This document shows, one piece after another, positions 7 through 63,434 of a stretch of 64,000 bases of DNA (the first letter of the stretch is position 1; each line of letters starts with the position of its first letter). Made by a program: the position numbers and the translations under genes. Origin of the DNA: Candidatus Lloydbacteria bacterium RIFCSPHIGHO2_02_FULL_50_18 (GTDB taxonomy: Bacteria > Patescibacteriota > Minisyncoccia > Phycocordibacterales > UBA6899); contig MHLM01000001.1 in NCBI GenBank assembly GCA_001821395.1, forward strand, positions 144,021-208,020. The letters are read 5' to 3'. The notes beneath the pieces are model-generated. The model searched no databases. It was not told where the DNA came from and was given only the letters and a program-made list of their open reading frames with translations.

Positions 7-2223
7 ATGATACTTATTGAAAGCATGTCAGTAGCAATGAAAAACAAAACGCTGGTCATTGTCGAGTCACCGACAAAGATCAAGAAGCTTGAAGCCTACC
101 TTGGCGATGACTACATCGTCCTCGCTTCCGTTGGACATATTCGCGACCTCCCAAAATCCAATAAGGTCGCTATCGATATCGATGGCGGTTTTGTACCGCA
201 TTATGAAATTGTTCCGGGGAAGGACAAGGTGGTTCGCGAACTCAAGGAGGCGGCGAAGGTCGTCAAAGAAGTCCTCCTCGCAACCGACCCCGACCGCGAA
301 GGCGAGGCTATCGCCTGGCACATCGTCGAAGTCCTCGGCCTAAAAAATGCAAAACGTATCGTATTTCATGAAATCACTGAATCTGCAATACAAGAAGCGG
401 TGAAACACCCCCGTCCAATCGATGAAAACCTCCGCCAGGCACAGGAAGCACGACGCATCCTTGATCGTCTCGTAGGATATGACCTTTCGGGACTTATCTG
501 GAAAAAAGTTCGCTATGGCCTCTCTGCGGGACGCGTGCAATCCCCGGCGCTCCGTATCATCATGGAGCGGGAACGAGAGATCCGTGCGTTCATTCCGGAA
601 ACATTCTGGAGACTGACCGCGGACGTTGCGACCGCAAAAAAAGAACCATTCACGCTCACCTGTAGCGAGGAGCCGAGAGACAAAGAACTTGTAGACAGGA
701 TCCTCAAAGAAGGAAAGATGAATGACTGGTATGTCCTCGAAGTGAAAGAAACCCAGGTTGCGCGCACGCCGAAGACTCCTTTTACTACCTCAACACTCCA
801 GCAGTCCGCATCAACTCGACTCGGACTGTCCCCCTCGCGCACGATGCAGATCGCACAGAAACTTTATGAGGCCGGACTCATCAGTTATATGCGTACCGAT
901 AGCACCAATCTCGCGCAAGAGGCGCAGAAAGAAATTCTCGCTATGATCGAAAAGACCTATGGCAAGGAAAAGGCGATGGCACGTACCTACAAAACGAAGA
1001 GCAAGAATGCACAAGAAGCACATGAAGCAATTCGTCCCACGAGCGCATCAAAGAAAAAGGCGGGACTAACTCCAGAGCAGCAAAGTCTCTATGCCCTGAT
1101 ATGGGAGCGCACGATCGCATCGCAGATGATCGATGCCACCACATTGCGTACAAAAATAGTGGCGAATATAGAGGGAGCAAAGCAGCCAATTCCCGATTTT
1201 CATGCGAACGGATCGCGTATCATCGCAAAAGGATGGCTCGAAGCGGATCCCGATGCCGCTGGCGAAGAAGTCACTCTTCCAAAAGTTTCATCCGGAGATA
1301 AGCTCATACTAAAACAGCTCGACGCCCTCGAGAAGCAAACCGAACCGCTTCCCCGTTACACCGAGGCGGGTCTCATTAAGGAGCTCGACAAACGCGACAT
1401 CGGTCGACCGTCGACCTATGCTTCCATCCTCCGGACCATCACCACGAGAGGTTACGTGAATAAAGAAGGCAAGACGCTCATACCGACTGATACCGGGGAT
1501 GTCGTCAGTTCATTCCTCGAACAACACTTTGCCAAATACATCAGTGACACATTCACTGCAGAGATAGAGCAAAAACTCGATGATATCGCCCTCGGGAAAC
1601 GAAAATATGCAAAGACGCTGAAAGAATTTTATGATCCATTCAAAAAAGATGTGAAATCGAAAGATAAAATTGAGAAGATTACCAACCTTGGTGAGGCACC
1701 GATGGGACTGCTTTGTCCAAAGTGCGGCGGCAATATGATCATCAAGCTCGGCAAGAACGGCAAGTTCTTATCATGCGCAAAATTTCCGGATTGTGACGGA
1801 TTGCGCGGTATCGACGGACAAGAGATCGAGGGCCCCCGTCTCACCGGAGAAAAATGCCCCGACTGCGAGAAGGGTGACCTCATCGAGCGCGAGGGTAAGT
1901 TCGGACGATTCATTGCTTGTGCAAACTATCCGAAATGCAAATACATCAAAAAAGATGCCAATCTTAACCCGGTCACCTCAAGCGGAGTCAAATGTAATAT
2001 CTGCAACGAGGGCGACATGATCGAGCGACGTGGCAGATTCGGGATATTTTGGTCATGTTCGAACTATCCGAAATGCAAACATGCGATCAAGGCGAAACCG
2101 ACGGGGAAATTATGCCCAATGTGCCAAGCACTCATGATGGAAGGTACGAAAACAATTCCCGAGAGATGTTCAAAAAAGGAGTGCCCCAACCATAACCCGC
2201 ACAAGCTCAATAAACCCAAATAG
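7..2223 (+). CDS. topA: DNA topoisomerase I. Toprim N-terminus (VIVESPTKIKKLEAYLG), catalytic Tyr region (LISYMRTDS), and four C-terminal Cys4 zinc ribbons (CPKCGG, CPDCEKG, CNICNEG, CPMCQA). True start probably at M of MKNKTLVIV (near 37).
   Basis: 738-aa ORF; Topo IA motifs read directly from the translation. Confidence 0.9.
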   Translation: MILIESMSVAMKNKTLVIVESPTKIKKLEAYLGDDYIVLASVGHIRDLPKSNKVAIDIDGGFVPHYEIVPGKDKVVRELKEAAKVVKEVLLATDPDREGEAIAWHIVEVLGLKNAKRIVFHEITESAIQEAVKHPRPIDENLRQAQEARRILDRLVGYDLSGLIWKKVRYGLSAGRVQSPALRIIMEREREIRAFIPETFWRLTADVATAKKEPFTLTCSEEPRDKELVDRILKEGKMNDWYVLEVKETQVARTPKTPFTTSTLQQSASTRLGLSPSRTMQIAQKLYEAGLISYMRTDSTNLAQEAQKEILAMIEKTYGKEKAMARTYKTKSKNAQEAHEAIRPTSASKKKAGLTPEQQSLYALIWERTIASQMIDATTLRTKIVANIEGAKQPIPDFHANGSRIIAKGWLEADPDAAGEEVTLPKVSSGDKLILKQLDALEKQTEPLPRYTEAGLIKELDKRDIGRPSTYASILRTITTRGYVNKEGKTLIPTDTGDVVSSFLEQHFAKYISDTFTAEIEQKLDDIALGKRKYAKTLKEFYDPFKKDVKSKDKIEKITNLGEAPMGLLCPKCGGNMIIKLGKNGKFLSCAKFPDCDGLRGIDGQEIEGPRLTGEKCPDCEKGDLIEREGKFGRFIACANYPKCKYIKKDANLNPVTSSGVKCNICNEGDMIERRGRFGIFWSCSNYPKCKHAIKAKPTGKLCPMCQALMMEGTKTIPERCSKKECPNHNPHKLNKPK

Positions 2224-2440
2224 GTAGCTTGCAATCTGCATTGCAAGCGGAAAATTGTTTTTGTGAGACGGAGCATTGTTTCGCCAGCAGGCGAAACGCG
2301 AGTCGGGGTCGCGAGCGTTTTCGTTCGACGGAACGAAAACGACTTGTGACCAAAAACTATTCCCGAACGATGCAGCAAGAAGGAGTGCCCGAATCATAAC
2401 CCCCACAAACTGAACAAGCTCACATAACACAAATACCACC
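2224..2440 (+). repeat. About 125-nt hairpin-rich insert (2224-2350) followed by a diverged duplicate of the last 66 nt of topA (2352-2420). The duplicate encodes IPERCSKKECPNHNPHKLNKLT*; the gene ends IPERCSKKECPNHNPHKLNKPK*. Same element family as the tRNA-linked repeats (motifs TTGTGAGACGGAG, GAGTCGGGGTCGCG, TTGTGACC).
   Basis: Direct repeat of the gene 3' end visible in the sequence. Hairpins gcttgcaat/attgcaagc, gtttcgcc/ggcgaaac, cgttttcgttc/gaacgaaaacg. Confidence 0.6.
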
Positions 2441-2465
2441 CGCTCCAGAGAGCGGGTGATTGATT
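2437..2465 (+). terminator. Stem-loop cacccgctc-caga-gagcgggtg after the topA duplicate; putative terminator.
   Basis: Inverted repeat read in sequence; the downstream T-tract is weak. Confidence 0.35.
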
Positions 2466-2523: not shown

Positions 2524-3996
2524 ATGATAAAAAATATGGAACATGTCAAGACACTCACCGAAATTACTGAAGTCATGCGCAGTAAGGAAAAAGAGCACAT
2601 CGATCTCGTGACAAAGGCCTATAACTTTGCTGAACAAGCGCACCACGGACAGAAACGCTACTCCGGGGATCCGTACTTTATCCACGTTGCAGCGGTAGGA
2701 TATACCCTTGCGGAGATGGGCATGGATACGACCACCATCTCAGCAGGGCTCCTGCATGACGTCGTCGAGGACGCAATGGTATCTGAAGATGATATCGAGC
2801 GAGAATTCGGAAAAGAGATCCGTTTTCTTGTCGACGGTGTCACAAAGCTCGGTAAGCTCAAATATCATGGGGTCGAAAGACATGTCGAAAGCTTGCGCAA
2901 ACTTTTCGTTTCCACCGCAAAGGACCTGCGAGTCATCATCATCAAGCTTGCCGATCGATTGCATAATGTGAGCACACTTAAATATATACCGAAGGCCAAG
3001 CAGCATCGTATCGCCATGGAGACACTCGAGATCTATGCACCGATCGCAAATCGTCTCTCCATCGGTAAGATCAAGGGCCAGCTCGAGGATTACTCCTTCC
3101 CTTTTGCTTATCCCGAAAAATACGAAGAACTTCAAGCACTGCTCAAGGAGCGAAATAAGGACAATGAAAAGCGTTTGGAAAAAATATATCGCGGAATCCA
3201 GATAGAGCTTGTAAAGAGCGGAATCGTAAATGTGCATGGTGAGTACCGCATCAAGCGCATGTACAGTCTTTATAAGAAACTCGCGGAACATGACATGGAC
3301 ATCAGCAAGATCTATGACCTGTCTGCACTGCGGATCGTTGTCCCGACCCTTGCGGACTGTTATCGTGCGCTTGGTATCGTACACAGCGTCTGGAGACCGC
3401 TTCCCGGCCGCATCAAAGACTATATTGCCTTTCCAAAACCAAACGGCTACCAATCACTGCACACAACGATATTCACCGGCGACGGCGGCATCGTTGAGGT
3501 ACAATTTCGCACCGAGGAGATGGACCGCGATGCGGCGCTCGGAATTGCAGCGCACTTTGCATACAAAGAAGGAATTCCGGGCGACGTGAGTGGCAAACTT
3601 CCCAATAAGCTCGATTGGGTGAAGCAAGTTTCGCTATTACAGAAAAATATTTCCGCGTCTGGAGAATACCTTGAAAATCTTAAGGTTGATTTTTTCGGTG
3701 ATCGCATATTTCTTTTCACTCCCAAGGGTGACGTTGTCGATCTTCCTCAGGACTCCAGTCCGATCGATTTTGCCTATGCCATCCACTCGGATATCGGAGA
3801 ACATATTTCCGGCGCAAAGATCAACGGAAAATTTCTCGCACTTGATACAAAATTGCACAACGGGGATATCGTCGAAGTCATCACCAAAAAAAATGCGAAG
3901 CCGTCGATCAAATGGGTTGATTATGCGAAAACAACTTTTGCAAAGCGCAGTATTCGTTCATATCTGCAAAAAGAAGAGGAGAAACGAAAGCGTTAA
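2524..3996 (+). CDS. rel: Bifunctional (p)ppGpp synthetase/hydrolase, RelA/SpoT homolog. HD domain (HDVVEDA), synthetase domain (GYQSLHTT), TGS domain. Start may be at M5 (2536).
   Basis: 490-aa ORF with HD and RelA/SpoT motifs. Confidence 0.85.
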   Translation: MIKNMEHVKTLTEITEVMRSKEKEHIDLVTKAYNFAEQAHHGQKRYSGDPYFIHVAAVGYTLAEMGMDTTTISAGLLHDVVEDAMVSEDDIEREFGKEIRFLVDGVTKLGKLKYHGVERHVESLRKLFVSTAKDLRVIIIKLADRLHNVSTLKYIPKAKQHRIAMETLEIYAPIANRLSIGKIKGQLEDYSFPFAYPEKYEELQALLKERNKDNEKRLEKIYRGIQIELVKSGIVNVHGEYRIKRMYSLYKKLAEHDMDISKIYDLSALRIVVPTLADCYRALGIVHSVWRPLPGRIKDYIAFPKPNGYQSLHTTIFTGDGGIVEVQFRTEEMDRDAALGIAAHFAYKEGIPGDVSGKLPNKLDWVKQVSLLQKNISASGEYLENLKVDFFGDRIFLFTPKGDVVDLPQDSSPIDFAYAIHSDIGEHISGAKINGKFLALDTKLHNGDIVEVITKKNAKPSIKWVDYAKTTFAKRSIRSYLQKEEEKRKR

Positions 3997-5270: not shown

Positions 5271-5362
5271 ATTCTAGCATAGAACCACCCGCCGCAATGA
5301 TGTGTACAAAGTGTTGATGAGTTTGATTTTTGGATGCGAGTTCGTTACACTATCCCCACAAG

Positions 5363-5400
5363 CTGGAGTGGCGGAATGGTAGACGCGTGAGGTGCTGGAT
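5363..5400 (+). pseudogene. 5' fragment of a tRNA-Leu. It matches 25 of 26 nt to the start of the tRNA-Leu(CAA) gene 215 bp downstream. There is no anticodon or T-arm half.
   Basis: gctggagtggcggaatggtagacgcg vs gccggagtggcggaatggtagacgcg. Confidence 0.5.
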
Positions 5401-5575
5401 TAGCGAAGCAGCGCTTCGCAAGCACCGCAAGGTCGGAGCCATGTCGAGGCTTTGTGAGACAGGCGAGACGGGGTCGCAAGAACTTATGAGCGAAGCGAAT
5501 TAGTTACTTGAGACCGACGTAGTCGTGCGCAGTGTGGATGTCGTGAGAATTGTTCAAAAAAATAAATAGTTCGTA
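5401..5575 (+). repeat. tRNA-linked element copy (core TTGTGAGACAGGCGAGACGGGGTCGCAAG, hairpin gcgaagcagcgcttcgc) between the tRNA fragment and tRNA-Leu(CAA).
   Basis: Motifs shared with 2262-2350, 9362-9532, 57225-57420 and 63270-63300. Confidence 0.5.
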
Positions 5576-5577
5576 TT

Positions 5578-5658: not shown

Positions 5659-5663
5659 CATTT

Positions 5664-6060
5664 TGAAAAATCAGCCCATGTGGGCGATTTTTCTTATGTG
5701 CCGGAGAGAAAGTGCTCTGCGGCACTTTCGTGAGGGACTTGAAAAGCTTTGCGATGTTTATAAAGAATTCTTATTCTGAATAAACCGCAAGGGTGTACTG
5801 ACCGAGTAGCGGTCAAGTCCCCTCTTTCTTTGACAAAAAACGTAGTAACTCGTGACCAAGTCTGATACCCTTGCGTGCTTTCGTGAGGGACTTGAAAGGG
5901 ATTTCGATATTTTCAAGGAGCCATGCTCCGAGAAAATCGAAATCCACCTGGCGAAGTAATCGCCAAGTCCCTCGTTAATTGCATCAATAAGACCTAGTGA
6001 TTCGTGACCAAGTCCGAGAGTACTGCTCGGCTTCCGTGAGGTGACCCACTAGAGACGCGC
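5664..6060 (+). repeat. tRNA-linked elements, about 2.5 tandem units. Terminator hairpin 5666-5692. Mirror copy of the tRNA 3' end split by a hairpin (tgtgccggag[agaaagtgctctgcggcactttcgt]gagggacttgaa, 5697-5742). Core ATTCTTATTCTGAATAAA ... GGGTGTACTGACCGAGTAGCGG. Direct copies of the T-arm (tcaagtcccctc, ccaagtccctcg, ccaagtccgag).
   Basis: Read directly from the sequence; the same architecture recurs at 10 other loci. Confidence 0.7.
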
Positions 6061-9361: not shown

Positions 9362-9532
9362 ATCAGCGGGCCCACGAGGAATCGATCGCAGTACCGTTCG
9401 TTGCGGTCACAGATAATTTCCTCGCCGTCGCACGGAAATTTCCGCGACCCCGACTCGCAACCTCGCTTGCTAGCTCGGTATCAGCTCCGTCTCCCGCAAA
9501 GCGAAAAACTGCATTCGCAGTTATTTCGTCTT
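9362..9532 (-). repeat. tRNA-Trp-linked element. Core GAGTCGGGGTCGCGGAAATTTCCGTGCGACGGCGAGGAAATTATCTGTGACC, hairpin CGGTACTGCGATCG, direct copy of the tRNA 3' end (cgattcctcgtgggcccgc, 9362-9385), partial mirror tgcggg...gagtcgggg.
   Basis: Read on the minus strand. Confidence 0.6.
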
Positions 9533-11329: not shown

Positions 11330-11372
11330 ATAAAATGAGCATCCCTTCCGAGGGATGCTCATTTTATTATGC
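11330..11372 (+). terminator. Perfect hairpin aaataaaatgagcatccc-ttccga-gggatgctcattttatt.
   Basis: 17-bp perfect stem. Confidence 0.65.
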
Positions 11373-11374
11373 GT

Positions 11375-11640
11375 AGAGCAAGCGAAGCTTGCGGGCAGGA
11401 TTCGAAGACCCTGAGTTTATCGTAGCGAGCTTGTCCTCAAGCGATGCGAGATTCGAAGGGTGTACTGTCCATGTAATGGAAGAAACTCCTGCCCTTTCAA
11501 TATGGCTTCCGGCAGGATTCGAAGCCGTTCTCCCATGTTTTTGAGCGATGGCTTTGCATCGTGAAAAAATGGGCGACATTGTTTACTTGCGAACAAACCG
11601 ACCCTATGGTCGGTTTTACGTATGGTGTCCAGATATATGC
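11375..11640 (+). repeat. tRNA-linked elements. Mirror of the tRNA-Tyr 3' end split by the hairpin gcaagcgaagcttgc. Core GGGTGTACTGTCCATGTAATGG plus direct copy agaaactcctgccc. Then a second partial unit whose mirror (ggcaggattcgaagccgttctcccatgtttttgag) is identical to the tRNA-Lys element at 24738-24775. Ends in the hairpin aaaccgaccctatggtcggtttt.
   Basis: Read directly from the sequence. Confidence 0.6.
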
Positions 11641-11643
11641 CCT

Positions 11644-13758
11644 CTAAATAGCACCACTCTTACATTGCTTACATAAGTCACGTACATTCTCGGGAACATA
11701 ATCACACGACGGTGCGAGTTTGAAATTCTCGCAGACATTTGCGGGCATTCCGCCACCCGACGCGCCAGCAGGAGGCATCATACCGGTCGGAATTCCTGCG
11801 GGAAGCTCTCCGCTCTTTGGAACTCCCTCGGGACGATAACCTGCTTCGGGGATGCCCTCCTTAGGAATACCCGCTGGCATTCCGGCAGGTCTAAAACTCT
11901 GCATGCACTCAGCGATAAACGGCTGTACGTCTTCCGGTCCTCGTATTGTAGAAACATCACCGATCTTCGACTTGATACAGTCACGCATTTCCGCTGGCGC
12001 CTGCTCGAGCATCTTATCCATTATTGCAGTCGCATTAGCCGCACATGATTGAAATGCATTCCCCATGTCGGGAGAAAGCTCGATGCCGTCTCCATTCATG
12101 ATCTTTTCTACGACATCTTTTCCAAGTTTCTCTTCGATACATGCGCGCATTTCCGGCGGCATCTTCTCAAGACCTTCGCGCGCCTGTTGCATTCCGCTCT
12201 CACGCATGGACTCAAAACACTTTCTCACGATATCTCCGCTTTGCGCATCCATTTCCCCACCCGAAAGCATCTTATCGAGCCCGCTCGACCCAAGCCCTTT
12301 TTCGATACAGGCTTTTGCCTCGGGTGTTGCGATATCCATCGCTGCACTTATCTTTTCTTTTATCTTAGGCATCATATCTGCCATGCAACCCTTGATCAAC
12401 TGACCCATATTTTGTGTGGGCATGAACGTACCTTCTGATATCTTTGCCAGCGCTTCTTCTCCTAATTTTTCCTTTAGGCATACACGCGCTTCTTCAGGAA
12501 GCTGCGGCAAACCGGCACGCAATTGACCCATTCCATCTTTGATCTCTTTCAATTGCTCGGCTGGAATGAGGCCATACTTTTCGGCAAACTTAAAACATTC
12601 TTCCTGGTGCGACGTATCATTACAATACGCCTCACAAGTTTCACGAGAACGGCACCCACCGGGACCCTCTCCGCCGGTCTTCCTCGCCATCTCGGCATCT
12701 TCCTTTGAAATGAGCCCTGCTTTCTCGGCGAAGTTCACACATTCATCGGCATGATCACTTTCGGAACAATATGCTTCACAAAGCGCTTTTGTTGTGCACT
12801 TTCCGGGAGTTTCACCCGACTTCATAAATGGGAGTACTCTGCGCGACTCTGCGACATCTTTTGGATCAATGAACCCTGCTTTCTCGGCAAACGTGAGACA
12901 TTCATCAGCATGGGTCGTATCAGCGCAATATGATTCACATGATTTTTTGTCTGTGCAGCCACCCGGAAGCGTCGCGCCTTCTGCAAGTACTCTGGATATC
13001 CGTTTCGCGTCCTGCAATACATCTTTCGGTATCAGGTTGTGTCGTTCTGCAAATAAGAGGCATTCATCCAAATGCGCGACTCCATTGCAGTACGCCTCGC
13101 ATGTTTTTTGGTCCTTACATGCACCGGGACCGTCTCCTCGGAGAACATCGGCAAACTCCCTCGCGCGAGCAGCCTCTTCCTTTGAGATCATGCCATTTTC
13201 TTCCGCATAATCCGTACACGCTACGATGTGCGCCTTGTCATCACAGTACGTCTTGCAGGACGACTGGTCCTTACAATTTCCGAGCTTAGTGATGGGAAAT
13301 TTATTCTTCTCAGTTTCCGATCGCTGCAGATGCCCGACCGCACCAAACACACTATCGGTCACGACACCGTCATTGGTGAACGTATACACGCGCCCCCACA
13401 AATTCAACCTCATATCATCGGGACGCTGCGTCTGATACGAAGTGGAATATATCCCTTTTGTACCCTCGTTGAAACCACTGACGCTCCAGTTCATGTCGGC
13501 GGCAGTGTATCGAATCGTATATATTTTTCCTGCCATGAGCGTTCCCATGGGGTCGCTCGAACCCTTCCAGCCGGAATCATCAAAATTGGCTGTATCAAAA
13601 TTCACGTAAAATGTTTTTCCCGACTTGATGTACGACTGCCATGGCCCGAGTTCGGGTGCCGCAAACGCAACGATCACCGAGCTCATGAATATTCCCGCAC
13701 AAACGATCAGCACTGCAATGTGTCCTGCGAGCACATTCTTCATGTGAAAATTTTTCAT
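11644..13758 (-). CDS. Secreted or membrane-anchored cysteine-rich tandem-repeat protein. Five ~45-aa modules (C-x5-C-x3-C-x8-9-C, e.g. CKDQKTCEAYCNGVAHLDECLLFAERHNLIPKD) are followed by four ~35-aa repeats (PEEARVCLKEKLGEEALAKI...). The ORF track extends it to 13926, but the start is MKNFHMKNV at 13758.
   Basis: Repeats visible in the protein, and echoed as opposite-strand ORFs in the track. Confidence 0.6.
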   Translation of the reverse strand: MKNFHMKNVLAGHIAVLIVCAGIFMSSVIVAFAAPELGPWQSYIKSGKTFYVNFDTANFDDSGWKGSSDPMGTLMAGKIYTIRYTAADMNWSVSGFNEGTKGIYSTSYQTQRPDDMRLNLWGRVYTFTNDGVVTDSVFGAVGHLQRSETEKNKFPITKLGNCKDQSSCKTYCDDKAHIVACTDYAEENGMISKEEAARAREFADVLRGDGPGACKDQKTCEAYCNGVAHLDECLLFAERHNLIPKDVLQDAKRISRVLAEGATLPGGCTDKKSCESYCADTTHADECLTFAEKAGFIDPKDVAESRRVLPFMKSGETPGKCTTKALCEAYCSESDHADECVNFAEKAGLISKEDAEMARKTGGEGPGGCRSRETCEAYCNDTSHQEECFKFAEKYGLIPAEQLKEIKDGMGQLRAGLPQLPEEARVCLKEKLGEEALAKISEGTFMPTQNMGQLIKGCMADMMPKIKEKISAAMDIATPEAKACIEKGLGSSGLDKMLSGGEMDAQSGDIVRKCFESMRESGMQQAREGLEKMPPEMRACIEEKLGKDVVEKIMNGDGIELSPDMGNAFQSCAANATAIMDKMLEQAPAEMRDCIKSKIGDVSTIRGPEDVQPFIAECMQSFRPAGMPAGIPKEGIPEAGYRPEGVPKSGELPAGIPTGMMPPAGASGGGMPANVCENFKLAPSCDYVPENVRDLCKQCKSGAI

Positions 13759-13762
13759 ATCG

Positions 13763-14050
13763 CTAGAAAGGATTCTGATAAGTGTCGGTATACGGATTGA
13801 CCGTTTTTTCGAACGGATTCGTATCAGGCATCTTTTCGACTGGATTGGATGCACCAGTTTTTTGATAAATATCTCCACCAAAAGATTCGGCGGGTACCGC
13901 CTCTGCCGGTGTGGCATTTGTATCACTTCCTGATAATGTGTTGTCGGTCCCCTTTTGAGAAGTACCGAAATAAAACCAAAACATAAACCCTAAAATGACG
14001 GCGAACACGAGCGCGGCAAGCGCAAGTAGTACATTTTTTTTCATGATCAA
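13763..14050 (-). CDS. Small membrane-anchored hypothetical protein (N-terminal TM, Thr/Pro-rich tail).
   Basis: ORF with a hydrophobic N-terminus. Confidence 0.4.
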   Translation of the reverse strand: MIMKKNVLLALAALVFAVILGFMFWFYFGTSQKGTDNTLSGSDTNATPAEAVPAESFGGDIYQKTGASNPVEKMPDTNPFEKTVNPYTDTYQNPF

Positions 14051-24038: not shown

Positions 24039-24205
24039 AAGTAAATAAATCCCTGATGGGATTTATTTACTTTGTGCCCGGGAGAAAGCAAGCTGCCTTG
24101 CTTTCGCGTGGGAGTCGAAGCCCGTTTCGTTATTTGCGAAGAATTCCTATTCTGAGAAAATCGAAATGGGGTGCTGACCCAGCAAAGATCGAACCTCCCA
24201 CGTTA
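24039..24205 (+). repeat. tRNA-linked element. Terminator agtaaataaatccc-tgat-gggatttatttact. Mirror tgtgcccggg[agaaagcaagctgccttgctttcgc]gtgggagtcgaagccc. Core GAATTCCTATTCTGAGAAAATCGAAATGGGGTGCTGACCCAGCA. Direct copy gatcgaacctcccacg.
   Basis: Read directly from the sequence. Confidence 0.7.
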
Positions 24206-24623: not shown

Positions 24624-24697
24624 GCCTTCGTAGCTCAGTTGGTAGAGCAGCTCGCTCTTAACGAGACGGTCGCAGGTTCGAATCCTGCCGGGGGCAC
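24624..24697 (+). tRNA. tRNA-Lys(CTT). CCA is encoded.
   Basis: Hand-folded. Loop cuCUUaa, T-arm gcagg-ttcgaat-cctgc. Confidence 0.8.
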
Positions 24698-24700
24698 CAT

Positions 24701-24880
24701 AAAAAAATCCGCGACAAGCGGATTTTTTTATGGTGCCCCCGAAGAAGTGCCCTGCGGCACTTCTGGCAGGATTCGAAGCCGTTCTCCCATATTTCTGAAT
24801 GATTCATATCATGAGGAAATGGGAAACGGGTACTGACGCAGTAGGCGTCGAAACTCCTGCCGTGAGATTTCAAAAGACTG
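24701..24880 (+). repeat. tRNA-linked element. Terminator aaaaaaatccgcgacaagcggattttttt. Mirror tggtgcccccg[aagaagtgccctgcggcacttctg]gcaggattcgaagcc. Core GTTCTCCCATATTTCTGAATGATTCATATCATGAGGAAATGGGAAACGGGTACTGACGCAGTAGGCG. Direct copy tcgaaactcctgccgtgag.
   Basis: Read directly from the sequence; the core is about 80% identical to the unit after tRNA-Val(GAC). Confidence 0.7.
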
Positions 24881-25152: not shown

Positions 25153-25400
25153 CAAAGAAAACCGCGTAAGCGGTTTTTGTGTGCCCAGAGCGACTGAATA
25201 CTACAAAGAGTACTTCATTTTTCTAAAGCAGAATACTGCTAAGAAAAATTGGTCGCACCACAGAGAGTACTTCATTTTTCTAGAGCAGAATACTGCTAAG
25301 AAAAATTGGTCGCTGCTTCAGTCGCGCGAGAGGACTTGAAGCCGTTCTCCTGTATTTTTGAAGATTTCTTAATCTGACAGGTAGCCCAAATCTTGCACGC
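25153..25400 (+). repeat. tRNA-linked element. Terminator aaaaccgcgtaagcggtttt. Mirror tgtgcccagag[~130-nt insert]gagaggacttgaagcc. The insert is a hairpin (gcgactgaa ... ttcagtcgc) whose loop holds 2 x 52-bp tandem repeats (AGAGTACTTCATTTTTCTARAGCAGAATACTGCTAAGAAAAATTGGTCGC). Core spacer GTTCTCCTGTATTTTTGAAGATTTCTTAATCTGACAGG.
   Basis: Read directly from the sequence. Confidence 0.65.
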
Positions 25401-29599: not shown

Positions 29600-30586
29600 A
29601 TGACTATTTCTGAAAGCACCTTAGACAAGGTCGGCGCAATGGGCGCTGCATTCTCTCTCATTGACCTCATTCGCGGGTTCAGCCATGGAGGCGTTCACGT
29701 CGGCGGAGGCACGGGCGGAGTAGGTTTTCTTACTTCTCTTCTCACTGTGCTCGTCAGAGTATGGGAAGAAAAAGGCGGGAGCATGAAAGACGAAAGCGAA
29801 ATGCTCGAGTCAATGTTTGCAAACCCGCAAGCAAAGAATGAAAAACTCACACCGCAGGAACGTACCAAGATCGCGGCCGTCATCAAGGCGATGACTCCGG
29901 CAGAGCAGAAAGTGTTCCGCATCGCAATTTTTGTGATGGACCCCGATGTGACGACGATCGAAGTACCGGAGAAAAAAGACAAGGACGGCAAAGTCATCGC
30001 TGTAGCCGGAAAACGAACCGAAAAAACGGGAATTGATCCTCGGGTCAATGTCCTGCACGGTATCGCCGAGCACGTCCATGACAACCTCGATAACGTCACC
30101 GAAGTGGCCGAATTACTTCGCGGTACGGGGGCGCTGGGTGGAAACAACGAGGCACTTAAGTTTCTCGTCAAGGTACAAGTAGAGCTCAAAAAGCTTCTTT
30201 GCACGTTCTTCGGGGTCGAATCCGTCGATCTTATCACCTTCGACATGGTCAAAGAAAAGGCAACCGTGCTCATCGGAAATATCGGTGTGCCGAATGCCAA
30301 TTTGCCGGGACCTCCGGTCGGTCCGCTCATGCGAGTGGGTCGCCTCATCACGCCGGGGAGTTATCGCAATGCTCCTGCATCGAAAAGCGTGAAGTCCAAG
30401 AAAGAGGTAAGGTCGACGAGCCTGCTGAAGATGTTTGCAGTGGTAGCATGTATCACCGGCATCCTCGCTTACGGCTTGTACTTCGGAGCTTCAAAGTACC
30501 GAGCGTACCAAAGAGATACTGAGATTGACAACATCATCAACGCGTATCAACCGACCAAAACGTCGGCTGAGCAGCCGATGAAATAG
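29600..30586 (+). CDS. Hypothetical protein, 328 aa. Gly-rich N-terminus (GGVHVGGGTGGVGF), C-terminal TM anchor.
   Basis: ORF with strong promoter and RBS. Confidence 0.55.
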   Translation: MTISESTLDKVGAMGAAFSLIDLIRGFSHGGVHVGGGTGGVGFLTSLLTVLVRVWEEKGGSMKDESEMLESMFANPQAKNEKLTPQERTKIAAVIKAMTPAEQKVFRIAIFVMDPDVTTIEVPEKKDKDGKVIAVAGKRTEKTGIDPRVNVLHGIAEHVHDNLDNVTEVAELLRGTGALGGNNEALKFLVKVQVELKKLLCTFFGVESVDLITFDMVKEKATVLIGNIGVPNANLPGPPVGPLMRVGRLITPGSYRNAPASKSVKSKKEVRSTSLLKMFAVVACITGILAYGLYFGASKYRAYQRDTEIDNIINAYQPTKTSAEQPMK

Positions 30587-30604: not shown

Positions 30605-32227
30605 ATGAGTTTATGGAAAAAAGCAGGCTACGGCCTTTTGGGAATTTCGGCCATTCTCGGTCGAAGGACCCTCTCGTCCGCATACGACCGCCAGATCGAG
30701 GGCATTACCGACGCGCATATCAAATATGTCGGCGGCGCAATGCTCTTCGGAGTTTGCGGTCTCGTGCTTAACTTCATCTTTTTGATGAATGGGATGCACG
30801 GCATGCAAACAGCGCTCTTCGGAGTTATCTGTCTTGCGTCACTGTATTACATGATCGCGCCAAAAATGAGCATTCCGCTCATCATCGCGGCCGCAGCGGT
30901 TCATGCCGGAGAGGCGAAAGATCAAGCGAAGCTCAAACTGCTCGGCGACGGAGTGAAAGACATTGTCAATCTGGCAAGTCTGGCACTCTTTTGGATCGGT
31001 GTGTACATCGTCGGAACGATCATTGCCCCATGGGACTTGAGTTGGGAATTCTTTCTTTTCCTTCACATGTTCATCATCATGGCACTACTGCTCTTTGTGA
31101 GCGGCAAGGCATCGGTCAGCACGAAAGTGTACGATAATTGCTTCAAGTTCACCATTGCTGTGATCGTTGTCAGCGTACTCACGATCGCAATCGGACGTGA
31201 GCACGTAGGACCATTATGGGCGCAATTCTCCGCAAGCAAAACTTCTCGTATCGAGGCCAAGTTGAACGCAAGTTCGATTAAGACCGCAGACGAAGCGTCA
31301 GCCGAGTGGATTGAGAAGAATGTTCACATCGATAAGCGGACCGGTGAGCAATTCGTCATCGTTACCGACAAGGTCACCGGCAAACAAAAACCGGTCGCCG
31401 CACAGCCCTACATTGAGAGGGAGAAGCAACGCAGGAACGAAACCATCCGCTCGGTCACGGAAAAAGGCGGAAAGACCAATGCGACAAACACGAGACAGGA
31501 TAATAAGGGAGGTTACTTCTCTTATGAATACTGGAACGCAAAAGCGCATGAATGGTCGGAATCCTGGGGGGTACCACTCTTCGTCGGCATCATTGCAGTA
31601 TTGGCAATGGTCGTGGCACACTTCATTCCCGTCATCTGGGGAGGAAAGAAACTCTTTGGAAAGTCAGGTACTGAAACGGCAAAGGTTGTTAGTACGCCGA
31701 AGGAGTCCGGAAACGGACTTGTTGCCACATTACTCGTTGCGGGTGCTCTCGTGTATATTGGCTTTCAGTATACGCAAGGTGAACGAGGAGCAAAAGCCAA
31801 TATGGCACCGCAAACAAGCGTTGCGACATATGCCACACTAAAGAAAGGAGATGCCGGTCTGTGGATGGCCTACTGGAGTGACATGAACGGGCACTCCATT
31901 TACAGACTTCCTCAAGATAGATGGCATGGGCGAACTGTTTCGCTTTTGCCAGGCAGCTCTGTTTCGAATGTGTCCGACATCACGCTTGTTTTTGATCCTA
32001 ATGATCCAAGTACCAATATCTCATTTAACGGAGATTGCGTTGCCGGTAGCTACGATATTCAAAAAGAGTGCGTCGGATACTGGAGAACAGAAGTGGGGTC
32101 CGGTACTTTCAGGCTTGAATGGTGGGGAAGCCAGGAAACATTCCACATTGCACTGTTTCCGGGACAACTGCCGGCAAAAGGACAGGCACAAGCCATCAAG
32201 GAGATACGCTTCGTAAAAAAACAATGA
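30605..32227 (+). CDS. Hypothetical polytopic membrane protein, 540 aa. About 5-6 N-terminal TM helices, two further TMs, and a C-terminal soluble domain. No ATPase motifs.
   Basis: ORF with hydrophobic segments. Confidence 0.55.
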   Translation: MSLWKKAGYGLLGISAILGRRTLSSAYDRQIEGITDAHIKYVGGAMLFGVCGLVLNFIFLMNGMHGMQTALFGVICLASLYYMIAPKMSIPLIIAAAAVHAGEAKDQAKLKLLGDGVKDIVNLASLALFWIGVYIVGTIIAPWDLSWEFFLFLHMFIIMALLLFVSGKASVSTKVYDNCFKFTIAVIVVSVLTIAIGREHVGPLWAQFSASKTSRIEAKLNASSIKTADEASAEWIEKNVHIDKRTGEQFVIVTDKVTGKQKPVAAQPYIEREKQRRNETIRSVTEKGGKTNATNTRQDNKGGYFSYEYWNAKAHEWSESWGVPLFVGIIAVLAMVVAHFIPVIWGGKKLFGKSGTETAKVVSTPKESGNGLVATLLVAGALVYIGFQYTQGERGAKANMAPQTSVATYATLKKGDAGLWMAYWSDMNGHSIYRLPQDRWHGRTVSLLPGSSVSNVSDITLVFDPNDPSTNISFNGDCVAGSYDIQKECVGYWRTEVGSGTFRLEWWGSQETFHIALFPGQLPAKGQAQAIKEIRFVKKQ

Positions 32228-32311: not shown

Positions 32312-32668
32312 CTAAATAGGAACAGTTGTTTGAATAGTAGGCGCGGTACCCAGTCCGCCGAGCGGTGCAAGTCCCAATTCTGTTTGGATGAATCCGATGA
32401 TCGACCAGAGCGCTACAATCACAAAAATACCCACCATGCCCCATACGAGAAACATCCTCCCCTCCTGCACCGCCTTCTCATCATCGGCATGCCAAATGAA
32501 TTTTACGACACCCCAAAAAAATACCGCAACCGCACAACCCAACAGTACGGGCATGATGGTCTGCATGAGATTAATGAGATCATCCATGATGGTGATCACC
32601 GACGTCTGAGCAAGTGCAAATGTTGGTAAGAAAAAAAACGTACCGAGAATAAAAGATCGTTTAGACAT
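32312..32668 (-). CDS. Small secreted 2-TM protein, paralog 1 of 8. VirB2/TrbC pilin-like topology (signal peptide, TM1 FFWGVVKFI, loop HADDEKAVQEGR, TM2 WGMVGIFVIVALW).
   Basis: Paralog alignment by eye. Confidence 0.55.
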   Translation of the reverse strand: MSKRSFILGTFFFLPTFALAQTSVITIMDDLINLMQTIMPVLLGCAVAVFFWGVVKFIWHADDEKAVQEGRMFLVWGMVGIFVIVALWSIIGFIQTELGLAPLGGLGTAPTIQTTVPI

Positions 32669-32981
32669 AATTCATCAGCGTCATATCGCCGCCTATTGAG
32701 CTAATAAGGAATCGCATGATACCAAACACGGCAACCATGATGAACATGCCAATGATACCCCATATCATACCGAGACGCCCCTTATCGCGCATCTCCGCAT
32801 TATCCGGATTCCAGATATACGCGACCACTCCGTAGATAAAATAGACGGTCGCGAGTGCAAAGAGCAAAGCGATGATAGGATTCAAAATATACGTCGAGAT
32901 GTTGCCGACGAAAGTGAGCACCGATGCGGGAATCGGGGGCGCAGCTGCTTCTGCTACGCTTGGAAAAAAAATGTTTAACAT
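32661..32981 (-). CDS. Small secreted 2-TM protein, paralog 2 (start at MLNIFF; loop NPDNAEMRDKGR).
   Basis: Paralog alignment by eye. Confidence 0.5.
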   Translation of the reverse strand: MLNIFFPSVAEAAAPPIPASVLTFVGNISTYILNPIIALLFALATVYFIYGVVAYIWNPDNAEMRDKGRLGMIWGIIGMFIMVAVFGIMRFLISSIGGDMTLMNYV

Positions 32982-33084
32982 GAATAAATTATAGCATCTC
33001 AATAAAAATTGACTATCCGAATGAGCAAACAAAAACCCCCGAGAACATTCTCGGGGGGTTTTTGTAATCCTATTTTTATCAGGA

Positions 33085-33441
33085 CTAGACTCCAGGAACA
33101 GCAAATGCTGGTGGTGTTGACGTGGTTATTGTCCCAGTCAATCCAAGCTGAGTCTGAGCCCAACCAAGAATACCCCAGAGAGCGACCATGACAAAGATCG
33201 CAACCATACCCCAGATCATAAGCGTCTTACCCTGCTCCTTTGCGGCTTCATCGCTTGCATTAGCGATATATTTGACCAAGCCCCAAAAGAACGCAACGAC
33301 CGCAAGACCCATGAGTAATGGGATCAAAAGCGAGATAATACCCTGAACGCTGTTTACGAGATCGGCGATACCGGTGAGCACGGTTGCTGCAGAAGCAACT
33401 GCGGGACCCACAAGCATCATTCCGATGATAAATTTCTTCAT
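33085..33441 (-). CDS. Small secreted 2-TM protein, paralog 3 (start MKKFIIG, signal peptide ending ASA; loop NASDEAAKEQGK).
   Basis: Paralog alignment by eye. Confidence 0.55.
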   Translation of the reverse strand: MKKFIIGMMLVGPAVASAATVLTGIADLVNSVQGIISLLIPLLMGLAVVAFFWGLVKYIANASDEAAKEQGKTLMIWGMVAIFVMVALWGILGWAQTQLGLTGTITTSTPPAFAVPGV

Positions 33442-33615
33442 AGATTTGATAATAATTAATAAATACACCGCCAAAACTATAACTTAATGCTATCGCACAA
33501 ACCGATGTCAAGCAATAGAAAAAAAAGATACCTGTGGATTACTGTTTCCGTTACCCGGAATCACAAAAATCGACCTCTTCACATGCCTGATGATCATATT
33601 TTTGTACGATAAGAG

Positions 33616-33978
33616 CTAATGGATGCCGCCAGTCGAATCCACATAATCCGGTGCGCCTCCCGGCATAATCCCAAATGTATCAACAAGAAGAATTCGCACT
33701 ATTCCCCATACGGAGAAGAGCACGACGAACGCGATAATCCCCCAAATGATGAATTGCTTTCCTTTTTCACGTTCAACGGGATCGTTCGCATTACCGATAA
33801 ATTTTACGACGCCCCAGAAAAAGAACATGATGGCAGCGATCCAGAAAAATTGTCCGGCCTTCACCAAAATATTGTAGACAAGCACCTCGAGGTCAAAGAC
33901 GTCCGTGACTTGCGCGAAAACAAGGGATGGAGTGCCAAGAAGCGTCGCAATACCGAACTGTTTGTTTATTGTTCTCAT
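33616..33978 (-). CDS. Small secreted 2-TM protein, paralog 4 (loop NANDPVEREKGK).
   Basis: Paralog alignment by eye. Confidence 0.55.
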   Translation of the reverse strand: MRTINKQFGIATLLGTPSLVFAQVTDVFDLEVLVYNILVKAGQFFWIAAIMFFFWGVVKFIGNANDPVEREKGKQFIIWGIIAFVVLFSVWGIVRILLVDTFGIMPGGAPDYVDSTGGIH

Positions 33979-33993
33979 GAAAATAAAAAATAA

Positions 33994-34338
33994 TTATGAG
34001 GGCGTACTCAAAAAAGGAATACCGAACGAACCTCCAAAGAGTGTTGAATTCAAGATACCGATGAGTCCCCACATCCCAAGCACAACCGCGATACCGATGA
34101 TGGCCCACAGCAGATAGGGCTTGATCTCTTCGCGCCTTTTCTCATTATCTGAATTCATCATATAGAGCGCGATACCATATACGAGTCCGGCGATAAGCGC
34201 GGCAAAGAAAATGGAGATAATGTTCTTTAAGACTCCCAAGAGCAACTCGACGAAACTCTTGAAGTCCGTCGGCGTAGTAGCGGCAAAAGTAATAAGGGGG
34301 GAACAGAAGACTAGCGTCGCAAAGATGAATTTTTTCAT
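33994..34338 (-). CDS. Small secreted 2-TM protein, paralog 5 (start MKKFIFATL; loop NSDNEKRREEIK).
   Basis: Paralog alignment by eye. Confidence 0.5.
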   Translation of the reverse strand: MKKFIFATLVFCSPLITFAATTPTDFKSFVELLLGVLKNIISIFFAALIAGLVYGIALYMMNSDNEKRREEIKPYLLWAIIGIAVVLGMWGLIGILNSTLFGGSFGIPFLSTPS

Positions 34339-34345
34339 ATACATA

Positions 34346-34684
34346 TTAAAATAATATCGCCGTACCATATACCATGTCTGCGATGACTTTTGCACCAAGG
34401 ATAATGAGCCCGCCAACGAGTGTCCACGTGAGCCAGATCTTCGCCTTCGTCACCTGCGCTTCATCCCCCCCCGCGGTGACGAACTGAAAACCAGCATAAA
34501 TAATACAGCACGCGAGCGCGGGTATGCCGACCAGCTGCATGATCTCGATCAGCCAATAGATAAAATCCTGAAGCGTAAGAATTGAGGGAGCCGGATTTGA
34601 TAGCAGTGTCCATGATGCAGCAAGTGAAATTCTTGGTTGCGAGAGGGTGAGTGTGGCGAAAGATACTAAGGCTGTTTTTTTCAT
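34346..34684 (-). CDS. Small secreted 2-TM protein, paralog 6 (loop AGGDEAQVTKAK).
   Basis: Paralog alignment by eye. Confidence 0.55.
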   Translation of the reverse strand: MKKTALVSFATLTLSQPRISLAASWTLLSNPAPSILTLQDFIYWLIEIMQLVGIPALACCIIYAGFQFVTAGGDEAQVTKAKIWLTWTLVGGLIILGAKVIADMVYGTAILF

Positions 34685-34703
34685 AAAGGTATTGGGATTC
34701 AGA

Positions 34704-35063
34704 TCACAATGAGCTAATAGTCGCCTGTATCGCTGCGGCGATCACTTTCGCACCGAGCAGCACGAGTGCCCCCAACAGTGTCCACTTGAAGGTGGTACGA
34801 GCCTTCGCAATCTGCGCCTCATTGTCCCCCGCGGTCACAAAGAGAAATCCGCCATAAATGATGAACATCACAATAATGGGCACTCCGATAAGAAAAACGA
34901 GGTCGACGATAGCGAGCAGGAGATCGGGAATAGAGGTAATCCCACCGTAAGTGATCGGGTTTACATAGCTTGACGAAGCAGCAGACGCCGTATGCGTACC
35001 CATTAAAAGTCCGAGCGTTGTCAGGTTTAATGGTTTTGTTATGTAGTGTTGCATAAGTATCAT
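34704..35063 (-). CDS. Small secreted 2-TM protein, paralog 7 (loop AGDNEAQIAKAR; start uncertain).
   Basis: Paralog alignment by eye. Confidence 0.5.
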   Translation of the reverse strand: MILMQHYITKPLNLTTLGLLMGTHTASAASSSYVNPITYGGITSIPDLLLAIVDLVFLIGVPIIVMFIIYGGFLFVTAGDNEAQIAKARTTFKWTLLGALVLLGAKVIAAAIQATISSL

Positions 35064-35067
35064 GAAT

Positions 35068-47938: not shown

Positions 47939-48108
47939 AAACCGCTCGGCATTGCTTTTTGAGGGCACGCATAAAAGTCTGCTGACTTTTTGCTCAGACT
48001 CCGCTCCGTCGAGCTCCGTAGCCCCTCAAAAAGTAACACCTCGCTCCCAGGTGCGTATTTCGAGTTGGCATGTGTATAATATGAATAGTTTGAAGACACC
48101 AAAAAAAT

Positions 48109-57010: not shown

Positions 57011-57084
57011 GCATCCTTAGCTCAGTTGGTTAGAGCATTGCATTCACATTGCAGGGGTCGGAGGTTCGAATCCTCCAGGGTGCA
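57011..57084 (+). tRNA. tRNA-Val(CAC). CCA is encoded.
   Basis: Hand-folded. Loop uuCACau, T-arm ggagg-ttcgaat-cctcc. Confidence 0.75.
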
Positions 57085-57087
57085 CCA

Positions 57088-57425
57088 ACCTAGGACGCAA
57101 CTGCTTGCGTCCGTGGAGGATTTGAAAGGATTTTCATTATCGAGTCCGCGAGGTTGAAAATCACCTGCGGCGGTAGCCGAGAATCCTCCAGGGTGCACAA
57201 ATCAGACACAAAACCTTCCCTGCGGAAGGTTTTGTGTCTGATTTGTGAGACAGAGTCATGTTTTTTCAGCAGAAAAAACAGACGAGTCGGGGTCGCGGAA
57301 ATTTTCGAGTGGCGACGAGAAATTATCTGTGACCAAGGATGGCTTTTCGTCATCGAAATACGAAACCCGTACCACTCCCGTAGGGAGAGAAATTCCTCCA
57401 GGGGTACACCATCAGCAAGAAATTC
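57088..57425 (+). repeat. tRNA-linked elements. Hairpin ggacgcaactgcttgcgtcc. Partial mirror gtggaggatttgaa. Direct copy 1 cgagaatcctccagggtgcaca. 20-bp perfect hairpin aatcagacacaaaaccttcc/ggaaggttttgtgtctgatt. Core TTGTGAGACAGAG ... GAGTCGGGGTCGCGGAAATTTTCGAGTGGCGACGAGAAATTATCTGTGACC ... CCCGTACCACTCCCGTAGGGAGAG. Direct copy 2 gaaattcctccaggggtacacc.
   Basis: Read directly from the sequence. Confidence 0.65.
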
Positions 57426-63229: not shown

Positions 63230-63434
63230 GTACGAGCGGAGATGAGAGGATATTCGGTCACAGGTTACTAAGCCTTTTAGCGCAAAGCCTACTAAAAGTC
63301 TAAGTATCTTCGACCCCGACTCGGCGACAATACTTTTCAAAACTAAAGTATCGTAAACCGCCTCCGTCTTTCGAATCCTCTCATCTCTCGCAGTGATAAA
63401 TTAAAAAAGACCTTACGGTCTTTTTTAAACCACC
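63230..63434 (-). repeat. tRNA-Ser-linked element. Terminator aaaaaagaccttacggtctttttt. Unsplit mirror tttcgaatcctctcatctctcgcag. Core GCCGAGTCGGGGTCGAAG ... CCTGTGACC. Direct copy gaatatcctctcatctccgc (63238-63258).
   Basis: Read directly from the sequence. Confidence 0.6.

Follow-up and report, generated by a model that had tools for sequence, protein, structure and literature searches.

In a 64,000-nucleotide stretch of Candidatus Lloydbacteria DNA (contig MHLM01000001.1; the whole stretch is called the window below), the topoisomerase I gene topA carries a 204-nt insert (2148-2351) within its 3' end. We consider it probable that this insert is a non-coding mobile element that entered the gene end by guide-directed insertion and belongs to a family found at tRNA genes of the Candidate Phyla Radiation (CPR). 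As judged from the gene-end comparisons described below, TopA is now made with a foreign C-terminus, and the resident gene end lies intact but non-coding downstream of the insert. The coordinates of all features are collected in Table 1.

Two copies of the topA gene end

The last 76 nt of topA (2148-2223, stop codon TAG) are repeated 204 nt downstream (2352-2427, stop codon TAA). The two copies, called copy 1 and copy 2 in the following, are identical at 57 of 76 positions without gaps, and the next-best placement of the segment in the whole window, on either strand, reaches 38 of 76. Comparison of 22 codons (2155-2220 versus 2359-2424) revealed 16 nucleotide differences with 20 of the 22 amino acids identical; the C-terminal residues differ, being IPERCSKKECPNHNPHKLNKPK in copy 1 and ...KLT in copy 2. 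Counted over these codons by the Nei-Gojobori method, synonymous differences are near saturation (11.75 differences at 12.5 sites, pS 0.94) and non-synonymous ones are rare (4.25 at 53.5 sites, pN 0.079), resulting in a pN/pS of 0.085. Under neutrality, the probability of finding at most 4 non-synonymous differences among 16 changes is about 2e-6. One serine codon has changed its family between the copies (TCA versus AGC). The original prediction for this DNA had described the duplication, had put the differences at about 14 in 66 nt, nearly all of them synonymous, had asked for the substitution test just given and had concluded that the copies stem from two different topA alleles. The duplication and the excess of synonymous changes were confirmed, the count has to be corrected to 16, and the two alleles are borne out by saturated synonymous sites in a nearly unchanged peptide and by the different nearest neighbors of the copies reported below.

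The reading frame of copy 2 is interrupted upstream by a TGA at 2347-2349, and the offset between the copies, taken modulo 3, is 0, 1 or 2 across 11 related loci with the same layout. Since a stop codon precedes copy 2 in frame and the offset is not conserved, copy 2 is neither a read-through extension of TopA nor a piece of an overlapping gene, the latter being the explanation that the original prediction had set against its own. In-frame translation into copy 2 was rejected on the same grounds. A template/variable repeat pair of a diversity-generating retroelement was also ruled out, the differences between the copies involving all four bases and not being specific for A. No reverse transcriptase gene was found among the window ORFs (open reading frames) scanned with Pfam, which cover up to about 58 kb of the window.

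Metagenome contigs were scanned with the C-terminal 307 amino acids of TopA, yielding 80 topA loci, most of which carry no insert after topA. The closest relative (locus L167, 92% amino acid identity) has an empty site with the same order of topA, terminator hairpin and relA/spoT-like gene as the window, and deletion of 2148-2351 from the window makes the two colinear. Copy 2 is identical to L167 at 61 of 73 positions (83.6%), level with the remaining gene (about 82.5%); for copy 1 the value is 56 of 73 (76.7%). Among 91 topA 3' ends, copy 2 is most similar to those of the host's two nearest relatives (L167, 54/63; L120, 52/63), and the best matches of copy 1 are scattered over distant lineages. 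The clearest case of this polarity is L145, where copy 2 matches four relatives, 82% identical upstream, at 46-49 of 57 positions versus 34-40 of 57 for copy 1; here the two copies encode clearly different C-termini, which are also of unequal length. Loci L150 and L137 agree with L145 in having a native-like copy 2. Since copy 2 tracks the relatives of the host and copy 1 does not, these alignments identify copy 2 as the displaced native topA end and copy 1, the functional one, as a foreign end that came with the insert. Thus, the earlier proposal that the insert brings its own 3' end and displaces the resident one is borne out, as is the expectation of empty sites in relatives. The downstream copy is identical to copy 1 at L109, intact but diverged in the window and at L132, L145 and L147, and decayed or deleted at L024, L007 and L155, a range that is the expected behavior of a displaced copy.

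Alternatively, the topA end might have been duplicated in place, as a long target-site duplication with later divergence, so that both copies would derive from the resident gene. Such an origin would suit L109, where the copies differ at 2 of 57 positions, L194, where 78 nt are duplicated exactly but for the stop codon, and the elements at tRNA-Arg and tRNA-Lys genes, where the partial copy matches the local tRNA though the element is the same. For the window it is disfavored and, in our view, highly improbable: a non-coding copy would have gathered non-synonymous changes, indels and stop codons instead of saturated synonymous sites with 20 of 22 residues kept, it is copy 2 and not copy 1 that tracks the host phylogeny, and in-place duplication does not suit the unequal C-termini of L145. 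An early reading of the partial copy as a target-site duplication, taken from the tRNA-Lys/tRNA-Arg case, was overturned for topA by the polarity tests.

Three other inserts were observed at the same topA 3' site, each duplicating the gene end (L141, about 1975-2190; L154, about 3041-3330; L194, 3409-3432). Two of the three have terminal inverted repeats (CACTAnTTTT...), and the one at L194 consists of 23 nt between the two copies of the 78-nt duplication. Unrelated inserts thus occupy the topA site with the same kind of gene-end duplication, so that the site or the strategy is common to several element types.

Guide and scaffold of the element family

Downstream of copy 1 the insert contains a hairpin (T1), a short guide and a conserved scaffold (Table 1). 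The guide (2253-2265) is antisense to the target, lies directly 5' of AGACGGAG and pairs with 2145-2157 over 13 contiguous base pairs including two G.U pairs; with the native site, that is with copy 2 replacing copy 1, 12 of the 13 positions pair. A 301-nt fold of the interval gave a z-score of -6.0. Guide, scaffold and the start of copy 2 fold into a three-way junction (z = -5.0) made up of P1 (guide and target), P2 and P3 with linkers of 0-4 nt. Hairpins equivalent to T1 in tRNA-linked copies show compensatory changes. In L120, the second-closest topA relative, a truncated remnant at 3421-3485 comprises a hairpin, the guide GTTTTTGTG, AGACGGAG and half of P2, and a second copy of the gene end is absent; the truncation shows element decay by deletion.

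The motif set of the topA insert recurs beside tRNA genes in the window, where GAGTCGGGGTCGCG was found six times at up to two mismatches (0.33 expected). A pattern scan of one genome per species yielded at least 118 loci. Of those listed, about 95 belong to CPR/Patescibacteria (Saccharibacteria, Paceibacteria, Nomurabacteria, Lloyd-, Kaiser- and Moranbacteria); the high-GC remainder lacks the flanking motifs and looks like chance. The members are structured RNA elements of about 60-130 nt, arranged as gene end, hairpin, antisense guide, conserved three-way-junction scaffold and displaced gene end. A covariance model was seeded with 18 ungapped 71-nt copies (alignment A3), which replaced a MAFFT alignment of mixed-length scaffolds (A2) that was inconsistent in P2. 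The model found 126 matches in 720 kb of CPR loci and six in the window; the topA scaffold is matched at 2260-2353 with 55.4 bits (E = 1.7e-11). Motif recurrence and model matches together uphold the earlier claim that the insert shares its motifs with the elements after tRNA genes, which ties a protein-gene target to a tRNA-targeting family.

In the scaffold, a short helix (GAC/GUC) closes the P2 hairpin, and a long P3 follows with the base GGUCGCG/UGUGACC. Over 23 pairs of the covariance-model alignment, 96.9% of the cells are paired compared to 75.7% in shuffles and 31-47% in slid controls. Cells changed on both sides number 521 (138 in shuffles, 54-86 in slid controls), and the covariation score of 0.479 exceeds those of the shuffles (0.131) and the slid controls (about 0.06). 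Two P3 pairs are conserved as G.U, one of them in 115 of 119 cells and the other in 82 cells with A-U in another 30; conserved G.U pairs make the scaffold strand-specific and hence an RNA feature.

Rfam 15 searched at the gathering threshold returned only tRNAs for the whole window, and at E <= 10 only chance hairpin or terminator matches over 2100-2480 and 24690-24880. No match in sequence or structure to the Rfam models of small self-cleaving ribozymes (hammerhead, twister, hatchet, pistol, hepatitis delta virus, hairpin) was detected. The insert had no blastn match in phage and plasmid collections, and the element pattern gave a single chance match, in high-GC coding DNA, among the IMG/VR viral contigs. 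In the literature searched for CPR tRNA-linked elements, guide RNAs, ribozymes and bridge-RNA-like systems no matching description was found. Even on a conservative reading the family is a new and widespread class of structured RNAs in CPR bacteria that is missing from Rfam, and it is apparently undescribed. A Paceibacterota and a Nomurabacteria genome share a 68-nt scaffold with 100% identity, located at different tRNAs. Such identity between two CPR classes argues for recent horizontal spread, which is its simplest reading, strong selection in situ for a host function being the alternative. At L004 (about 3600-3860) the sequences flanking the element repeat part of a 5S rRNA gene, in antisense orientation, and targets thus go beyond tRNA genes and topA.

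The guides of the family abut AGACGGAG in a fixed register, observed in 64 of 98 elements: the final 3 nt of the guide pair with the three nucleotides just before the junction, and the 6-21 nt further 5' pair with the sequence beyond it. Directly behind ...GTGACC, the partial gene copy starts precisely with the first post-junction nucleotide, and both junctions of an element read C|R (the bar marks the junction). Most targets are tRNA T-loops with the junction 56|57, where the site TTC|R is matched by a guide ending in ...GAA. Guides ending in ...GTG occur at CAC|A sites, which lie at the 3' termini of tRNAs or in their trailers, and also at the topA site, which reads CAC|AAAAAC elsewhere; in the window it is TAC|GAAAAC, matched by a guide of the same class through U.G and G.U pairs. 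GCG guides are found at CGC|A and GCA guides at TGC|A. The type of guide thus predicts the type of site (GAA, TTC|R; GTG, CAC|A or TAC|G; GCG, CGC|A; GCA, TGC|A). The guide and the start of copy 1 also covary at further topA loci (CCAAAACC, CTAAAAC, CCAAAACCAT). Among 52 elements located within 160 nt downstream of a tRNA gene, 34 guides form at least 7 contiguous pairs with their own tRNA, anchored at T54; when guides were permuted among loci (200 permutations), the mean was 12 and the maximum 20. G.U pairs are tolerated between guide and target (43 of 762 paired positions).

Proposed mode of insertion

Taken together, these rules make guide-directed, site-specific insertion the most likely mechanism, as far as it can be read from the sequences. 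The element would comprise, in this order, its own last 25 topA codons with the stop codon, a hairpin, the 13-nt antisense guide and an 86-nt scaffold ending in ...GUGACC, and the scaffold would be transcribed on the strand of the target gene. The guide would pair with the intact target over 3 nt before and at least 6 nt after the junction, and this docking would set the C|R phosphodiester of the target beside the 3'-terminal C|R of the element. Strand exchange between the two C|R sites would then lead to insertion, and the reverse reaction to excision or circularization. The catalyst might be a protein encoded elsewhere in the genome or the RNA itself, similar to a group I intron, in which the guide aligns both exons. 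Since a replacement gene end and a hairpin of its own are carried along, insertion would be harmless even if the element were never removed, and repeated insertion at the still-intact site would generate tandem arrays with the newest copy nearest the gene.

The original prediction had assigned the insert to an integrative element with an attachment core inside the gene end. Gene-end replacement, empty sites and the link to the tRNA-associated family fit this assignment; the search for a recombinase that it had called for detected neither a tyrosine nor a serine recombinase in the insert or among the window ORFs scanned. The element ends (GAAAAC... and ...GTGACC) are not inverted repeats, and core-type inverted repeats were not seen at the crossover. 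With a guide and a scaffold in their place, the mechanism is probably not that of a classical integrase with an att core. A classical origin would make the insert an integrase-less miniature remnant or a cis-mobilizable attL-attR element, moved by, or in trans from, a T-loop-targeting tyrosine or large serine integrase, and the conserved hairpins would be protein-binding arms or terminators and not a guide RNA. A foreign upstream and a native downstream gene end are the textbook signature of a gene end borne by attP, genomic islands typically accrete in tandem at tRNA sites, and large serine recombinase genes lie beside elements at L001 and L056. The T-loop is reportedly one of the crossover sublocations of tRNA-targeting integrases. 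Yet this explanation leaves unaccounted for an antisense copy of the junction that sits in fixed register by the scaffold, 60-120 nt from the crossover, and covaries with the target. Conserved G.U pairs and compensatory changes indicate RNA structure and not protein sites on a duplex, the targets (more than 15 tRNA isotypes, topA, 5S rRNA, terminators) are too diverse for a single core read by a protein, no integrase is present in the window ORFs scanned or near most of the about 95 loci listed, and the phage, plasmid and viral collections searched yielded no family member. We therefore regard classical integration as unlikely.

ORFs were clustered around the same about 95 loci, and two exceptions to an otherwise housekeeping neighborhood emerged, a large serine recombinase at three loci and a helix-turn-helix (HTH) protein at seven; no homolog of either was found in the window. 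The large serine recombinase genes (Resolvase, Recombinase and Zn_ribbon_recom domains) are located at L001 4579-6250, L056 4789-6406 and L041 5926-7435, and at L001 and L056 they directly adjoin the tRNA/element cluster. The protein of about 220 amino acids beside element-bearing tRNA clusters has an N-terminal HTH and a LAGLIDADG-like 'YWGEGGK' motif (L014 2791-3451, L034 660-1326, L070 2201-2861 and four further loci).

Homing by homology would not require a dedicated enzyme: a cassette of gene end, element and gene end, acquired by natural transformation, could recombine with a naive allele of a conserved gene, such as a tRNA gene or the zinc-ribbon end of topA, which provides both arms. 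The structured RNA would then have another role, for example in processing or stability of read-through transcripts, or a function that benefits the host. The targets are among the most conserved genomic sequences, the layout is exactly that of a universal homology cassette, competence and pilus genes occur in CPR genomes, pilin paralogs are encoded in the window, and an element that is more conserved than neighboring coding sequences and shows compensatory changes would fit selection in situ. On the other side, the right-hand homology (16-20 nt at tRNAs, about 75% identity for topA) falls short of what RecA-type recombination needs, and neither the fixed 3-nt register with its C|R junctions nor identical scaffolds at unrelated targets in distant lineages are explained. 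These points make homing by homology quite unlikely.

RNA splicing could also use both ends of the gene if intron-like removal joined topA up to 2147 with copy 2, with both C-termini expressed and selected. The guide can pair with the 5' side and the start of either copy as P1 and P10 of group I introns do, both junctions read C|R, and the reading frame of copy 2 is intact at L132, L145 and L147 as well as in the window. We consider splicing very unlikely, as copy 2 decays or is deleted while the element remains intact (L155, L024, L007 and three tRNA-Lys loci), the scaffold has only about 60-110 nt, and the element shows neither a group I nor a group II core nor any Rfam match at E <= 10.

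Several points weigh against guide-directed insertion of a mobile element. The reactive site would lie inside a continuous helix with C-G at position -1, unlike in any known small self-cleaving ribozyme. Among the window ORFs scanned there are only housekeeping genes and no transposase, and, housekeeping proteins aside, ORF clustering revealed no protein family that is consistently located beside the elements. Among three related hosts the element is 90-95% identical and topA about 78%, and an element more conserved than flanking coding DNA could mean a function for the host and not mobility. Near-identical elements including their trailer hairpins are present at tRNA-Lys (L002, L084, L049) and tRNA-Arg (L014, L070), with ends and partial copies that match the local tRNA; an element always carrying the gene end needs an extra step here, for example recombination between elements. 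The covariation counts were made on an alignment fitted by the model.

More tentatively, the elements might represent a new class of RNA-guided or ribozyme-driven mobile element that lacks ORFs and replaces the end of its target gene. A scaffold of about 60-130 nt with a programmable guide would insert at any guide-matched C|R site, and a spare gene end with a terminator (or promoter) would allow harmless colonization of essential single-copy genes such as tRNA genes and topA. The catalyst would be either a new small ribozyme, acting forward and in reverse like an intron with a circular RNA, or an undiscovered RNA-guided recombinase conserved in CPR bacteria.

Further elements and comparison with known systems

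Besides the topA insert, the covariance model matched the five sites given in Table 1. At the weakest of them (47967-48030), the flanks TTTTTGAGGG and CCCTCAAAAA can pair like a guide and a partial copy.

Table 1. Features of the topA region and related elements in the window
Feature	Position	Strand	Remarks
topA (topoisomerase I) ORF	7..2223	+	ORF list; 738 amino acids; 62-92% amino acid identity to 80 metagenomic topA loci; native part up to 2147, last 76 nt assigned to the element
Insert	2148-2351	+	204 nt, non-coding, without ORF; inside topA 3' end, junction TAC|G (2147|2148)
Target/junction segment TAC|GAAAACAATT	2145..2157	+	Junction J = 2147|2148; 5' strand of P1, pairs with guide; P1 also in centroid fold
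Copy 1	2148..2223	+	Predicted element-borne topA 3' end, now functional, stop TAG
T1 hairpin GCTTGCAAT-CTGC-ATTGCAAGC	2227..2248	+	After element-borne stop codon; belongs to insert; no counterpart after topA in L167
Antisense guide AATTGTTTTTG|TG	2253..2265	+	Last 3 nt pair with 3 nt before J, remainder with start of copy 1 (or copy 2/native site)
Conserved scaffold	2266..2351	+	AGACGGAG, P2 hairpin 2273-2299, CGAGTCGGGGTCGCG 2299-2313, long P3 hairpin 2307-2351 ending TGTGACC
Copy 2	2352..2427	+	Predicted displaced native topA 3' end, stop TAA 2425-2427; junction J' = 2351|2352
Native topA terminator hairpin	2437..2458	+	Terminator scan; positional homolog of hairpin after topA in L167
relA/spoT-like gene	2524-3996		Downstream of native terminator; HD_4/RelA_SpoT/TGS domains
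Family member downstream of tRNA-Trp	9403..9498	-	Covariance model; partial copy of tRNA 3' end after it
Family member with GTG-type guide, array after tRNA-Val(cac)	57242..57336	+	Covariance model; tRNA 3' end present three times
Family member downstream of tRNA-Ser	63254..63375	-	Covariance model; 18-nt guide antisense to tRNA positions 54-71
Mirror-image member upstream of tRNA-Leu(caa)	5425..5517	+	Covariance model; displaced copy of tRNA 1-26 on 5' side, guide (about 5527-5536) on 3' side
Weak divergent match	47967-48030	-	Covariance model, 26 bits; between upstream minus-strand gene and hisS 3' end
Second superfamily	5660-5960, 11330-11600, 24040-24200, 24700-24860, 25155-25400, 56300-56600, 57088-57200, 63680-63850		After tRNA genes

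A mirror form of the element was found upstream of some tRNA genes (window 5340-5577, L013, L056, L089, L090). Its order is displaced 5' part of the tRNA, a closed hairpin replacing P1, same-strand scaffold, junction-spanning guide, AT-rich stretch and intact tRNA. In the window it comprises the copy of tRNA positions 1-26, the scaffold variant GGTCGGAG...CGAGACGGGGTCGCA...TGAGACC and the guide AGTCGTGCGC, antisense to tRNA positions 24-33. The scaffold keeps the transcriptional orientation of the gene despite the inverted recombination geometry, which argues that it must be transcribed with the gene.

Tandem arrays are present after tRNA-Val(cac) in the window and at L147 and L014, with the most decayed copy outermost. 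In the window array (57011-57425), three tRNA 3' ends are separated by one element of each of two families, the outermost end (about 57405-57425) being the most decayed. At the three tRNA-Lys loci the element is conserved and the partial copy is decaying.

The second of these families is a guide-bearing superfamily that is more abundant, located after 10 of the 11 tRNA genes in the window and often present two or three times in tandem. Its members consist of an antisense guide ending in ...TCGAA/TTGAA, a long stem-loop, G(U)GUACU, a small hairpin (e.g. GACGC-AGUAG-GCGUC) and a partial tRNA starting at position 57, follow the same C|R junction rule as the main family and match nothing in Rfam. 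Some members of the main family (L002, L014, L019) likewise have GUGUACU, as an optional 3' extension. A unit of about 95 nt, GAGTACTTCATTTTTCTAAAGCAGAATACTGCTAAGAAAAATTGGTCGC, occurs twice in tandem (25190-25335) in the stretch that separates tRNA-Leu(tag) from its guide-bearing element. Elsewhere in the window four paralogous small ORFs with a T4SS_pilin domain lie in a row on the minus strand (32661-35541), and the large ORFs 11644-13926, 29600-30586 and 30605-32227 have no Pfam match.

If the guide sets the insertion site, the element would be a naturally occurring, very compact system for insertion that is programmable and scarless: it has a single contiguous guide, its scaffold measures about 70 nt, and the register of the cut is defined. 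A partner would then still have to be found, be it a ribozyme activity or an RNA-guided recombinase. The insert also shows that the C-terminus of an essential enzyme, TopA, is horizontally swappable in units of 25 codons. The family would also explain a striking feature of reduced CPR genomes: in the window, one to three structured elements together with partial tRNA copies come after nearly every tRNA gene, and these can confuse tRNA annotation, operon prediction and the calling of gene ends. The covariation support is sufficient to justify curation of the RNA class and experiments on it.

Among known systems, integrative elements with an attP-borne gene end (P4-like and P22-like prophages, integrative and conjugative elements, tRNA/tmRNA islands, among them the T-loop sublocation class) share the insertion into the 3' end of a conserved gene with function restored, the displacement of the native end as a partial direct repeat, tandem arrays and empty sites in relatives. 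They span kilobases and encode an integrase beside the att site, whereas the element described here has 204 nt, no ORF, a guide and a scaffold but no integrase nearby, and its targets follow the guide. Miniature inverted-repeat transposable elements (MITEs) and cis-mobilizable elements are likewise small, without ORFs, present in many copies per genome and presumably mobilized in trans; in contrast to these, we found no terminal inverted repeats, guide-specific targets and a covarying RNA structure. The duplication is not the fixed, identical target-site duplication expected of a MITE, since its length (16-80 nt) depends on how far away the gene end is and two different alleles are involved. 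Dada elements, eukaryotic DNA transposons with sequence-specific insertion into tRNA and snRNA genes (PMC8869645), also use multicopy small-RNA genes as a safe haven, but they code for protein, generate short target-site duplications and have no guide RNA.

The guide itself resembles P1/P10 of group I introns and the exon- and intron-binding sites (EBS-IBS) of group II introns, in which a short antisense sequence pairs on both sides of the junction and base pairing defines the site; as in introns, the 3' end of the element abuts the second junction and the element has the same orientation as the host gene. In Patescibacteria, group I introns favor tRNA genes as targets (PMC13011429); the introns reported there sit in the anticodon loop, unlike the elements described here. 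The elements are far smaller (about 60-130 nt). They have no P3-P9 core but only P2 and P3, C-G instead of U.G at position -1 and a 3'-terminal C instead of omega-G; with 204 nt, the topA insert contains no reverse transcriptase ORF and no Rfam match to the group II domains I-VI. A spare exon end is carried, so that splicing is not needed, and the displaced copy decays, unlike a true 3' exon. The bridge (seek) RNA of IS110/IS1111 elements is also an element-encoded structured non-coding RNA that sets the insertion site by base pairing, donor and target both being read by RNA. The bridge RNA has two internal loops with split guides for both DNA strands and is encoded beside a DEDD/Tnp recombinase, and IS110 duplicates a 2-nt core (PMC11208160, PMC11208158). 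Here, we found a single contiguous guide, no adjacent ORF or recombinase and the replacement of 16-80 nt of gene end (76 nt at topA). The outcome of insertion resembles the gene-end replacement of attP-borne systems, and the targeting logic that of an intron guide or a bridge RNA.

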